Shown: positions 3,828 to 14,150, numbered from the stretch's first letter. The stretch is DNA of 64,000 nt from Burkholderiales bacterium (GCA_049651845.1 JBASCW010000023.1:111-64110); one strand, 5' to 3'. A program made the numbers and translations. The notes: a model not told the origin generated them from the letters alone.

Positions 3828-6800
3828 ATGGCGAGAATCCCCGAAGCCGAGATCGAACGCATAAAGCGCGAGGTATCGCTCGAGCGGCTGGTCGAGGCCT
3901 CGGGGGTGGAGCTGAAGAAGAGGGGCAAGGATCTCTTCGGGCGCTGCCCGTTTCATGAGCCCGACGAGACGCCGAGCTTCTCGGTGACGCCGGCAAAGAA
4001 TCTGTGGAATTGCCTGGGCGCGTGTAACGAAGGCGGCGACGTGTTCGCTTGGGTGATGAAGCGAAACGGCGTGTCGTTTCGCCACGCCTACGAGCTGCTG
4101 CGTGAGGGCTTGGGCGCCGTGGGGGCGTCGCCGGTGAAGAAGACGACCGTGCGCTCCTTGCCGGCGCCGGTGTCCTTCGACGTGGACGACCAGGCGCTCA
4201 GGAATCAGGTGGCGCTCGTGTACTACGCAGGCGAATTGAAACGCTCGCCGGAGGCCTTGGCGTATCTCAAGGCGCGCGGCATCGATCACCCCGAGGCGAT
4301 CGACAAGTTCCGGCTCGGCTTCGCGAACCGCACGCTGGGCTTGAGGCTTCCGAACAGTCAGCGGGTGACGGGGAGCCAGATCCGCGAGCGGCTGCAGCGC
4401 GTGGGGATCCTGCGCGAGTCGGGGCACGAGCACTTCAACGGCGCGCTCGTGATCCCGGTGGTCGACGAGGCGGGCAACGTAGTCGAGATGTACGGGCGGA
4501 GGATCGTGCGGCCGGCGAGCACGCGCGCGGCGAAGCATCTGTATCTGCCGGAGGTGTGCCGCGGACCGTCGCGCGGGGTGTGGAACTGGGAGGCACTCGT
4601 TGCGAGCAAGGAAGTGATCCTGTGCGAGGCGCTGATCGATGCACTGACCTTCTGGTGCGCGGGGTTCCGCAACGTGACCAGCAGCTACGGTGCCGGCGTG
4701 TTCACCGAGGAAATGCTCGCGGCGATGAAACGCCACGGCACCGAGCGCGTGCTCATCGCTTACGACCGCGACGAGCCGGGAGAGAAAGGCGCGGCGGACG
4801 TTGCCGAGCGGCTGATCGCCGCCGGGATCGAGGCCTGGCGCGTCGAGTTCCCCAAGGGGATGGACGCGAACGAGTACGCGCTGAAGGTGCAGCCCGCGGC
4901 CAAAGCGCTCGGTGTCGCGGTGCGAAAGGCGGCATGGCTTGGCAAGGGGAAAGCGCCCGAGGTCTCGCCCACGTCGGCGCCGATCGCGGTGGACGTGGAG
5001 CGGCCGGCGCCGGTGGTTGAAGAACCTCGCGCGCCCGTGCGCGCGCGCGCGGCTTCTTCTTTAGCTGCTGAATTAGCTGCTAAGGAAAAAACCGAACCCG
5101 AACCGCAGAGCGAACCTGAGCCCGAGATCGAGGCGCAGCCGGCACCGGCCTCTCCCGTCGCGCCGGCGCCGAGCGCGAGCGACGATGAGCCTGAGGTGAG
5201 CGAGGCCGAGATCGCGGCGAGCTACGGCGAGCGCAGCTACCGCGTGCGGGGCCTGGCGAAAAACACGAGCTACGAGATCCTCAAGGTCAACGTGCTCGCT
5301 GCGCGCGGCGAGCGCTTCCACGTGGACACGGTGGACCTGCGCAACTCGAAGCAGAGAACGTCCTACGTCATGCAGGCCGCGCTCGAGCTGCAAGTGCGCG
5401 AGGACATCGTGAAGGACGACCTGGGCAAGCTCTTCCACAAACTCGAAGCGCTACGCGACGAGGCGATCGCGCGCGCGATGCAGCCCAAGGCCTCGCCGGC
5501 CGTCGCGATGGCTGAGCCCGAACGTGAGGCGGCGATGGCGCTGCTGCGCTCACCGCAGTTGATCGAGCGCATCCTGGCGGATCTCGAAGCCTGCGGGCTG
5601 GTGGGCGAGCGCGTGAATAAACTCGTGGGCTACCTGGCTGCCACCTCGCGCAAGCTCGATTCACCGCTCGCGGTGCTGGTGCAGAGCAGTTCGGCCTCCG
5701 GCAAATCGACGCTGATGGACGCGGTGCTCGCGCTGATGCCCGAAGAGGAGCGCGTGAAGTACAGCGCGATGACGGGGCAGGCGCTCTTTTACCTGGGCGA
5801 GCGGGACCTCAAGCACAAGATCCTCGCCATCGTGGAAGAGGAAGGCGCCGCGAGAGCTTCGTATGCACTGAAGCTGCTGCAATCGGAAGGCGAGCTCACG
5901 ATCGCATCGACGGGCAAGGACCCGGCGACGGGGAACCTGGTTGCGCAGCCCTACCGGGTCGAAGGCCCAACCATGCTCTTCACGACGACGACCGCGGCCG
6001 AGATCGATCCTGAGCTGCAGAACCGGTGTCTCGTCCTCGCGGTGGACGAGTCAAGAGAACAGACCCAGGCGATCCACCGGCTGCAGCGCGACAAGCGCAC
6101 GCTCGAAGGCATGGCGCGCAAGGCCAAGAAAAAAGACCTTGCGCGCCTGCACCAGAACGCGCAGAGATTGCTCAAGCCGCTCGAAGTGCTGAACCCGTAC
6201 TCCGACCGGCTCACCTTCCCCGATCAGGCGACGCGGATGCGGCGCGATCACGAGAAGTACCTGACGCTGATCGATGTCATCGCGCTCGTGCACCAGCACC
6301 AGCGCGAACTCAAGCTCACGGTGCGCGAGGGCCAGCCGATCGAGTACGTCGAGGCGACGCTTGCGGATGTGGCGCTCGCCAACGACCTCGCGCACGAAGT
6401 GCTCGGCCGATCCTTGGATGAACTGCCGCCGCAGACGCGCCGCGTGCTGGAGGCGGTGGACGCGTTCGTCGCCGCGCGCGCGAAGGCGCAAGCGATCGAG
6501 CGCGCGCAGGTGCGCTTCAGCCGGCGCGAGCTGCGCGAGGCGAGCGCGCTCGGCGACACGCAGTTAAAGATCCACCTTGGGCGCCTGGTCGAGTTCGAAT
6601 ACGTGCTCGCGCACCGGCGCGGCGCCGCGTGCGATTACGAGCTGGTCTACGACGGCGCGGGGCAGGACGGCCGGCCCTTCGTGCCGGGCCTGATCGACGT
6701 GCAGGCGCTTCGAGCTACGGCTACGACGGCGGATCGGTCGGGGGTAAATGATGATCGGTCGGCCCCTGGTCGGGGTCCGGTCGGCCCCCGGTCGGGGGGT

Positions 6801-6962
6801 GGTCGGGGTGACGAAAACGCGCTAAGTGTCCGTGATGAAAGCGATTCCGAGCCCGCGGCCGAAAAAACCTCCAAAACGCATATCAAGGGCGGCAACGGCA
6901 AAGAGCGCGTCGTACCTTTAGCTGCCGCCTCTCGCGACGCCGACGACGATGCTGCGCCGTAA
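3828..6962 (+). CDS. CHC2 zinc-finger/Toprim DNA primase fused to a P-loop ATPase (helicase-like), module 1
   Basis: CPFH...C.GAC zinc finger; Toprim CEALIDA and AYDRD; Walker A SSSASGKST; Walker B ILAIVEEEG; winged-helix-like C-terminus; GGAGG RBS. Confidence 0.9.
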   Translation: MARIPEAEIERIKREVSLERLVEASGVELKKRGKDLFGRCPFHEPDETPSFSVTPAKNLWNCLGACNEGGDVFAWVMKRNGVSFRHAYELLREGLGAVGASPVKKTTVRSLPAPVSFDVDDQALRNQVALVYYAGELKRSPEALAYLKARGIDHPEAIDKFRLGFANRTLGLRLPNSQRVTGSQIRERLQRVGILRESGHEHFNGALVIPVVDEAGNVVEMYGRRIVRPASTRAAKHLYLPEVCRGPSRGVWNWEALVASKEVILCEALIDALTFWCAGFRNVTSSYGAGVFTEEMLAAMKRHGTERVLIAYDRDEPGEKGAADVAERLIAAGIEAWRVEFPKGMDANEYALKVQPAAKALGVAVRKAAWLGKGKAPEVSPTSAPIAVDVERPAPVVEEPRAPVRARAASSLAAELAAKEKTEPEPQSEPEPEIEAQPAPASPVAPAPSASDDEPEVSEAEIAASYGERSYRVRGLAKNTSYEILKVNVLAARGERFHVDTVDLRNSKQRTSYVMQAALELQVREDIVKDDLGKLFHKLEALRDEAIARAMQPKASPAVAMAEPEREAAMALLRSPQLIERILADLEACGLVGERVNKLVGYLAATSRKLDSPLAVLVQSSSASGKSTLMDAVLALMPEEERVKYSAMTGQALFYLGERDLKHKILAIVEEEGAARASYALKLLQSEGELTIASTGKDPATGNLVAQPYRVEGPTMLFTTTTAAEIDPELQNRCLVLAVDESREQTQAIHRLQRDKRTLEGMARKAKKKDLARLHQNAQRLLKPLEVLNPYSDRLTFPDQATRMRRDHEKYLTLIDVIALVHQHQRELKLTVREGQPIEYVEATLADVALANDLAHEVLGRSLDELPPQTRRVLEAVDAFVAARAKAQAIERAQVRFSRRELREASALGDTQLKIHLGRLVEFEYVLAHRRGAACDYELVYDGAGQDGRPFVPGLIDVQALRATATTADRSGVNDDRSAPGRGPVGPRSGGGRGDENALSVRDESDSEPAAEKTSKTHIKGGNGKERVVPLAAASRDADDDAAP

Positions 6963-13900: not shown

Positions 13901-14150
13901 GAAGTCGCGGGAGTAAAGAGCGAACTCGCGGGGCGATTGCGGGGCGTTCGCGGCCCGATTGCGGGGGGGGCCGCGGGGCGAGCAAATCGCCGGAGAACCG
14001 CATGAATCGGGCGTCTCCGAGGAATCGACCCCGGAAACTGCAAAAACGCATAGCAAGAAGGGAAACGGTTCGGAGTCGTCGTACACGCAGAAACGCGTCC
14101 TACCCTTAGCTGCTGCCGGCGTCGGGGACGACGACGATGCTGCGCCGTAA
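10991..14150 (+). CDS. Primase/ATPase, module 2; frameshifted near the C-terminus (ends 14005 as written; homologous tail ends 14150)
   Basis: Close paralog of 3828-6962. The tail ...VLPLAAA...DDDAAP* is in another frame after the G8 run at 13963-13970. Confidence 0.85.

Follow-up and report, generated by a model that had tools for sequence, protein, structure and literature searches.

Protein alpha of phage P4 binds 8-bp type I repeats that lie in two separated cis regions. It combines a primase, a helicase and a C-terminal, origin-binding winged helix in a single protein (PMC2777425). In primases of the DnaG type, the zinc-binding domain recognizes a trinucleotide on the template and synthesis starts opposite its middle base, leaving the 3′ base uncopied; d(CTG), d(CTA), d(TTA) and d(GTC) are known as such sites, and the primers are no longer than 11 nt (PMC2978363, PMC2910064). 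Here, we analyzed a 64-kb stretch of DNA from a Burkholderiales bacterium (positions 111-64110 of contig C23, hereafter the window; the assembly amounts to 3.94 Mb in 182 contigs, with a guanine plus cytosine (GC) content of 67.5%), which carries in tandem two related elements, E1 and E2. The layout of the element, of ~7 kb, includes an XRE repressor, a protein with DnaG-type primase, P-loop helicase and winged-helix parts (primase-helicase), a XerC-like recombinase, and a toxin-tip cargo. We propose that the octamer TTAGCTGC, which is repeated through the element, is the core of a ~16-nt strand-specific cis signal for replication, most likely read by the P4-alpha-like primase-helicase, and we give this reading a probability of about 0.45.

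The element resembles P4 in that the three parts of alpha are also found in a single polypeptide, in the repetition of an 8-nt core at separated places of a small integrative replicon, as with the type I octamers of ori and crr, and because the P4 replicon also encodes a tyrosine integrase and a repressor. However, sequence similarity is confined to the DnaG part and the sequence of the motif is unrelated. Likewise, the copies in the element are polar and scattered in coding linkers, whereas the P4 repeats are clustered in two non-coding regions, and the element differs in having a Xer-like recombinase and a cargo of toxin tips. Cis sites for the initiator-primases of plasmids and phages are already known as a kind of signal; what is new is the length of the motif, its polarity, its placement in coding linkers against the codon bias, its conservation across phyla and the element that carries it. 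Neither the motif nor the element turned up in full-text searches of the literature.

Copies of the Octamer in the Window and in the Genome

The window contains ten exact copies of TTAGCTGC, all within 5061-14113 and nine of them on the plus strand (5061, 5073, 6918, 8079, 8558, 9133, 12236, 12248 and 14106, plus 8793 on the minus strand), precisely where the initial annotation had placed them; there is no exact copy in the rest of the window, and the annotation had itself noticed none in the 47 kb of host DNA. Dinucleotide-preserving shuffles led to an expectation of 1.04 copies per 64 kb, with a maximum of four. Paralogy accounts for three of the ten copies, and those at 5061 and 5073 are a tandem pair with a step of 12 nt. 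Freeing the centre base (TTAGCNGC) raises the count to 15 in the window, 14 of them within the element; two minus-strand copies, at 8748 and 8995, add to those first listed.

The whole assembly has 29 exact copies of the octamer: ten in the window, four in contig C4, three in contig C48 and 12 elsewhere, so that 17 of the 29 fall in four copies of the element (two in C23 and one each in C4 and C48). The 12 copies outside of the elements, in 3.9 Mb, are below the expectation based on composition. When the pyrimidine-tract flank described below is included, there are 19 copies in the 30.5 kb of elements vs. five in the remaining 3.91 Mb, which makes this strict motif ~490 times denser within the elements than outside of them. 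An equal frequency across the genome, the outcome that had been named as fatal to the idea of a signal, is therefore not what these counts show. The octamers of FtsK-orienting polar sequences (KOPS, GGGNAGGG) and Chi are similar in having an 8-nt core with free position and a strong strand polarity, but our motif is restricted to the element, and its frequency in the host falls short of expectation. Additionally, the same motif occurs in hosts of more than ten phyla, and we therefore discarded a host-specific polar signal of this type.

Structure, Position and Polarity of the Motif

The octamer is the local form of a longer motif, composed of a pyrimidine tract of ~8 nt, TTAGC, one free base and GC, which spans ~16 nt and can be written as 5′-YYTTCYT-TTAGC-Y-GC-3′. 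It is often completed to the palindrome CTTTAGCNGCTAAAG (CTTTAGC-N-GCTAAAG), with a purine-rich continuation, and its centre base is T in this genome and C in most others. We retrieved relatives of the primase, with 50-64% identity, from 122 loci, and counted the positions of the sites from 113 primase start codons. The most widespread class, S2, is at nt 1050-1350, on the plus strand and in about one third of the cases also palindromic, and was found in 85% of 110 elements. Also on the plus strand are S1 (nt 150-300; 47% of the elements), S3 (nt 3000-3300; ~55%), S4, at the 3′ end of the recombinase gene (~32%), and an upstream class at the 3′ end of the XRE gene (15%). Class S0 (nt 0-150, within the primase gene; 35% of the elements) is on the minus strand, and the downstream class occupies the non-coding region on both strands, with ~10% per 150-nt bin.

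Each element has 3-7 dispersed sites, mostly in coding linkers, and the plus-strand copies are spaced by ~0.3-1.9 kb. The plus to minus ratio for S1, S3 and S4 is ~7-10:1; the reversed motif would code for Ala-Ala-Lys and would require no rare codon. The centre base is C or T on the TTAGC strand in ~88% of the copies, in coding and non-coding classes alike, and the non-coding copies bear the same flanks as the coding ones. Variant lineages are few, with TCAGCCGC in locus L065, TTAGTCGC in locus L100 and degenerate copies in a Salmonella plasmid, and with so small a number no covariation was established between variants of the motif and changes in the proteins. As a separate observation, in 23% of the elements the peptide R-F-S-R-R is written CGC TTT AGC CGC CG (6503-6520 in the window and ~nt 2600-2700 of the primase gene in homologs), producing an out-of-frame copy of the motif that could be selected or incidental.

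Selection on the DNA Sequence

In 84 independent elements from outside this genome, the 4.4 kb that follow the primase start, comprising the primase and recombinase genes, contain 199 plus-strand copies of TTAGCYGC, vs. 6.85 expected from codon shuffles (maximum of 14), which is a 29-fold enrichment. The octamer TTAGCCGC is the third most widely shared 8-mer, despite its location in linkers rich in insertions and deletions. An alignment of 22 primases showed that the in-frame copies read (S/P)-L-A-A and sit in the three most variable, indel-rich stretches of the protein, one of which follows the zinc ribbon, another separates the primase part from the helicase part, and the third is the C-terminal tail. 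The positions and orientation of the motif are fixed across more than ten phyla, although the linker sequence around it cannot be aligned.

The use of codons agrees with this picture. In the long open reading frames (ORFs) of this genome, TTA represents 0.2% of the Leu codons and GCT 4.6% of the Ala codons. As had been noticed, the primase copies read TTA-GCT-GCT, and the motif accounts for three of the four TTA codons of primase 1 and for both of those of primase 2. Nearly all the primase TTA codons from GC-rich homologs also belong to copies of the motif (often one of one or two of two). These homologs keep TTA-GCN-GC and do not use ordinary Leu codons at these positions, the use of which was the other outcome that the initial annotation had named as a refutation. 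The motif is also kept in hosts of 43-50% GC, where TTA is common.

Together, these results show that the motif is an element-specific signal at the DNA level, with fixed positions and polarity and a central pyrimidine. The initial annotation had proposed a DNA-level signal, such as a binding, priming, loading or polarity site, possibly involving XRE, AP2, the primase or the recombinase. Its first part is strongly supported by the conservation of synonymous and non-coding sites, by their maintenance in hypervariable linkers and by the strand polarity; among the listed roles, priming, loading or polarity through the primase-helicase fits the data, whereas XRE and AP2 are excluded as readers (see below). 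The placement on rare codons can be understood because a signal that must exist as DNA is accommodated only where the genes tolerate it, in hypervariable linkers and at gene ends. This would be a clear case of dual coding, in which a nucleic-acid signal of ~16 nt, kept in protein linkers, overrides codon usage in genomes whose GC content ranges from 43% to 70%.

Two interpretations based on translation were examined and rejected. A control of the bldA type, acting through the TTA codon, does not account for a conservation that spans 8 nt upstream and 5 nt downstream of TTA, for the non-coding and minus-strand copies, or for retention in low-GC hosts. A CUU-UAG signal for frameshifting or for stop and restart was discarded since the motif can be read through in a single frame, which is already in use, and both of the others run into a stop within it.

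Candidate Readers of the Motif

The primase-helicase matched the Pfam families Zn_ribbon_DnaG, DNAG_N, Toprim_2 and DUF5906/AAA_29. Its N-terminal 350 amino acids (aa) match DnaG from A. aeolicus (2au3, E 3e-42), comprising the full zinc-binding and RNA-polymerase part, and the P-loop part corresponds to the DUF5906 region. The C-terminal domain of primase-helicase 1 (~6513-6645) was modelled by AlphaFold2 as a winged helix, with a predicted local distance difference test value of 86, and Foldseek matched it to winged helices of the ArsR, MarR, AspA and TubR types with a probability of 1.0. The helicase and winged-helix parts showed no detectable sequence match in PDB. Profiles and model together point to the organization of a P4-alpha-type initiator, in which a DnaG-type primase and an SF3-like P-loop helicase are joined to a winged helix at the C terminus, and the predicted recognition helix is nearly invariant across the family, as is the DNA core.

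Other proteins of the element are poorer candidates. The XRE proteins from E1 and E2 share 35% identity, whereas the motif is the same in both elements, and no copy lies between the XRE and primase genes; AP2, in turn, is encoded only in E1. The recombinase belongs to NCBIfam NF002331 (“XerC,” 441 bits), with XerD as its closest solved relative. The full name of this family is “site-specific tyrosine recombinase XerC,” and PGAP calls the gene xerC in plasmid records (L123 and L124); the label probably describes a recombinase of mobile elements and not the chromosomal XerC. The non-coding region, here and in many relatives, contains dif-like arms (ACATAA...TTATGT) that, judging by their sequence, are a better candidate than the motif for the site of this recombinase.

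Co-occurrence does not separate both genes, since the XerC-like recombinase gene is downstream of the primase gene in 130 of 131 cases; only the lineage of Noviherbaspirillum was informative. In two copies of the element from Noviherbaspirillum album, the gene next to that of the same primase encodes a P4-type integrase (Arm-DNA-bind_3), which is 24% identical to the XerC-like recombinase. These copies keep the upstream, S0, S1 and S3 sites, and lack S4, S5 and S6. The motif therefore goes with the primase-helicase and not with the XerC-like recombinase, and we infer that the reader is the element’s own primase-helicase.

Proposed Role in Replication and Alternative Explanations

In our model, the ~7-kb element would first be released as a circle, and the plus-strand copies would act on one template strand, as sites of primer start or loading for discontinuous synthesis. 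Synthesis might start at the central pyrimidine or at TTA, and copying of the upstream pyrimidine tract would result in a primer of 10-14 nt, rich in purines; the opposite strand would obtain its starts from the few inverted or palindromic copies. The plus-strand copies are located in the linkers of the primase, where the genes for the primase and the recombinase end, and 5′ of the cargo. Primer start or loading is suggested because the motif fits the rules for DnaG: it is a strand-specific signal, its start position is a pyrimidine on the template and its 3′ bases would stay uncopied, it contains TTA and C-Y-G, and the 8-13 nt conserved on the side to be copied have the length of a primer. 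In these respects, including a conserved 5′ part of primer length, it is like the sites of DnaG-type primases and of T7 gp4 (among them 5′-(G/T)2GTC-3′), which are also strand-specific on the template, with an initiating pyrimidine and uncopied 3′ bases. However, those sites measure 3-5 nt and turn up by chance genome-wide, whereas the motif of the element is ~16 nt, with 3-7 per element at fixed places under selection.

Several observations weigh against a replication signal read by the primase-helicase. A specificity of 14-16 nt far exceeds the 3-5 nt known for DnaG-type enzymes, and the usual order in the non-coding region (a minus copy, ~100 nt and a plus copy) would produce convergent starts, unlike what an origin needs. 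The third-position GC skew, with a mean of 0.03 and 53% of the genes positive, is uninformative and offers no indication of unidirectional replication. Around 10% of the elements lack exact copies over the 4.4 kb that begin with the primase gene, and the element from the Salmonella plasmid retains only degenerate copies. Several breakpoints of rearrangements or mosaics fall exactly on copies of the motif, which also fits a recombination site, and the case of Noviherbaspirillum may be a recent gene swap. Identifying the sites as primer starts rather than as double-strand iterons is the more speculative part of our proposal, and we hold as doubtful its strongest form, in which a DnaG-type primase-helicase with an unusually long template specificity, of ~14-16 nt, uses private start sites in the linkers of the element’s own genes, for a self-addressed replication that would be orthogonal to the host, whichever of the more than ten phyla it belongs to. 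If true, this would be the first DnaG-type primase with a long private recognition sequence, bearing on the choice of template by primases and offering a possible orthogonal replication module, and this private priming code would have been kept against codon bias for as long as the family has existed.

Double-strand iterons, bound as duplex by the C-terminal winged helix, like the repeats of P4 ori and crr, for origin recognition, looping or handcuffing, and copy control, are nearly as likely as sites of primer start or loading; they would share the reader with the model proposed above, and only the step served differs. The confident winged-helix model with its nearly invariant recognition helix, the organization that the primase-helicase shares with P4 alpha and the many copies that are palindromic or paired at 12 nt all favor iterons, but simple duplex binding would explain neither why the orientation is strict nor why a palindrome has, at its centre, a pyrimidine specific to one strand, and most copies are lone half-sites, scattered without clustering across 5 kb. 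The breakpoints bring in another, unlikely explanation, namely that the copies are secondary sites of the XerC-like recombinase, for module exchange, tandem or inverted copies, or multimer resolution, in the manner of shufflon sfx (Rci) or integron attC sites. The full copies are palindromes with a purine and a pyrimidine arm, and the recombinase gene adjoins, as in sfx, attC and dif-Xer systems, where some sites are also palindromes and some breakpoints coincide. In E1, both ends (8079 and 8995) and the centre (8558) of a foldback are copies of the motif, while C48 has one arm and one split site; the pattern of nearest relatives among E1, E2 and C48 switches within ~10 nt of S3; a divergent patch in L009b ends at S2; homology of the cargo in L036b resumes exactly at a half site; and the duplicated primase domain of L026 is joined in a linker with degenerate remains of the motif. 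Nevertheless, these breakpoints are not proof of site-specific recombination because the sites are identity islands of 16 nt at module borders, where homologous exchange, template switching and selection would account equally well for the breakpoints. The geometry is also wrong: most copies are single-armed, without the second arm at 6-8 bp; lone copies are uninformative 3′ of the core beyond one base, unlike sites with two arms of 9-13 bp; and the centre of the palindrome is 1 nt, with the best-conserved bases there and not in the arms. Four to six working direct repeats within the primase gene would delete this essential gene, the motif persists alongside the P4-type integrase, after replacement of the recombinase, and the dif-like arms, with a 10/11 match to the XerD arm, are better candidates. 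Additionally, the motif is not found at junctions. Homology between the host gene and the element starts at 1608/9209 without a copy; in L011 (Paraburkholderia haematera), the tandem overlap consists of 114 bp from the coding region of Rhs and has no copy either; and the junctions 4774/12953 of L123, the Pseudomonas aeruginosa plasmid pPA1609-475, where the overlap lies within tpsA2, also lack it. We thus rejected the motif as the attachment site and also as an integron-type attC or cassette-array site, since in the arrays of L004, with three Rhs tips on each side, there is no copy between tips.

The location of nearly all the in-gene copies on the sense strand, at the boundaries of domains or genes, together with the rarity of TTA in this host, might indicate a signal in the RNA of a long plus-strand transcript, such as a processing or protein-binding site or a translational pause at the slow TTA codon. 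We consider this improbable, because minus-strand classes occur (S0, within the primase gene in 35% of the elements, and S5, downstream), the non-coding copies have the same flanks, lone copies cannot form a hairpin and hosts of 43-50% GC, in which TTA is common, retain the motif; likewise, a scan of positions 1-17000 retrieved no match to an Rfam family. Finally, paralogy (3 of the 10 copies), chance, or the relic of an AT-rich ancestor combined with a Leu-Ala-Ala peptide, which is common in linkers, could in principle produce repeats without function. The 29-fold enrichment in 84 elements, the ~490-fold density of the strict motif, the fixed positions and orientation over more than ten phyla within unalignable flanks, and the existence of non-coding copies refute this for practical purposes.

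Motif Sites in the Window

In E1, S2 is a double site on the plus strand (5061-5080), in the linker joining the primase and helicase domains of primase 1, where TTAGCTGCTGAATTAGCTGC is read as SSLAAELAAKEK and the copy at 5073 completes the palindrome TTAGCTGCTAAGGAAAAA. The S3 site (6918-6925, plus) is in the C-terminal tail of primase 1, with the start codon of the recombinase 31 nt downstream, and S4 (8079-8086, plus) is at the 3′ end of the recombinase gene and at the outer end of the left foldback arm. The recombinase ORF (6949-8082) takes its stop codon from the TAG of this S4 copy, in agreement with the initial annotation, whose variant at 8313, two near-palindromes (GCAGCTNAGCTGC) and wider context common to 5053-5093 and 9125-9170 we also found. 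That variant, TGAGCTGC, has one mismatch (8313-8320, plus) and lies within GCAGCTGAGCTGC (8308-8320), at the apex of the left dif-like foldback; its mirror is an exact minus-strand copy (8793-8800) within GCAGCTAAGCTGC (8788-8800). Another exact copy (8558-8565, plus) is at the midpoint of the 925-nt inverted duplication 8078-9003, whose right arm contains two minus-strand copies of TTAGCCGC, one at 8748-8755 and the other at its outer end (8995-9002), as the inverted image of S4.

Site S6 (CTTCACTTTAGCTGCTGCAAC, 9133-9140, plus) is 76 nt upstream of a promoterless Rhs tip, and its context is also found in L004, in L020 and at the end of contig C44. The S6-type copy in C44 (CGCCTTCACCTTAGCTGCTGCAACCA, ~64742) is 376 nt from the contig end and is probably from a further element or from a junction fragment broken by the assembly. 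Two plus-strand sites in E2 are paralogs of those from E1: the S2 double site of primase 2 (12236-12255; paralog of 5061-5080) and S3 (14106-14113; paralog of 6918), which is just past the shortened ORF of primase 2.

Organization of the Carrier Element

Element E1 comprises a promoterless Rhs core-end with a toxin tip and an immunity gene (1608-2813), an AP2-like gene (2829-3293, minus strand), the gene for an XRE/RstR-like repressor (3312-3692, minus), those for primase-helicase 1, the proposed reader of the motif (1044 aa; 3828-6962, plus), and for the XerC-like tyrosine recombinase 1, the rival candidate (NF002331; 6949-8082, plus), and an imperfect foldback of 925 nt (8078-9003). The corresponding parts of E2 are the Rhs core-end with toxin tip and immunity gene (9209-10448), the XRE gene (10482-10889, minus), the gene for primase-helicase 2 (10991-14005, plus), which is 88% identical to primase-helicase 1, and that for recombinase 2 (14137-15237, plus). 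E2 is truncated at 15262 by an insertion sequence (15263-16810) that has entered at CTAG; this sequence has terminal inverted repeats of 17 nt and a DDE_Tnp_1/DUF772 transposase ORF (15324-16655), and host DNA follows on its right.

Contigs C4 and C48 each carry one further copy of the element. C48, of 7457 bp, has a 106-bp terminal overlap, and therefore corresponds to a 7351-bp circle or tandem with the same layout; the overlap suggests a free circular form of the element. This contig holds a whole element, including the Rhs tip. The foldback of E1 is an inverted duplication of the segment from S4 (8079) to 8558, with the mirror of S4 at 8995; C4 has the duplicated form, whereas at this position C48 has a single arm that ends in the split site TTCTTCCTTGGCTGCGCGGCTAAGAAAAAAC.

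Dif-like arms (ACATAA...TTATGT) bracket foldbacks of 50-110 nt, preceded by GGTAAA, at 8256-8380 and 8722-8843 in the window and at 14190-14330 in L011; this layout of arms and foldback is kept in many proteobacterial members, and the stem of the L011 foldback itself bears TTAGC repeats. A short GTGTCGGGC/GGGGC...TTGTT-like sequence is found just 5′ of the toxin tip in the window (9170-9208) and in L011 (14980-15021), and the tips that follow it start at differing points of the Rhs core in both; this GTGTCGGGC-like sequence may be part of the real attachment site.

Distribution of the Element Family

The element was found in at least 599 loci from more than ten phyla. Its hosts include Myxococcota, Alpha-, Beta- and Gammaproteobacteria, Desulfobacterota, Gemmatimonadota, Acidobacteriota, Riflebacteria, Verrucomicrobiota, Planctomycetota, Bacteroidota and one metagenome-assembled genome of Erysipelotrichia, and it is also present on replicons from cultured Ralstonia, Caballeronia, Janthinobacterium, Pseudomonas, Salmonella and Enterobacter. 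The family appears to replicate on its own. The motif is a handle on this undescribed family of at least 599 loci, which carries toxin tips for polymorphic toxins of the Rhs and CdiA types, and it is a simple marker for finding the elements and for correcting labels such as “XerC” and “toprim domain protein.”

The carrier is seen in the window (1608-15262) and in loci L004, L008, L009, L011, L014, L036 and L123. An Rhs core-end is nearby in 44 of 125 loci, with tandem arrays at Rhs loci, and in the Pseudomonas aeruginosa plasmid pPA1609-475 the element directly follows a gene of the TpsA/CdiA type. In the place that the foldback takes in this genome, the plasmids from Pseudomonas (L123, 11248-11836) and Salmonella (L124, 11298-11863) have a ParD/RelE-type toxin-antitoxin pair just past the recombinase gene. 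In the primase from a member of Riflebacteria (L026, 958-4920), the catalytic domain (aa 115-384) is duplicated in tandem and in frame.

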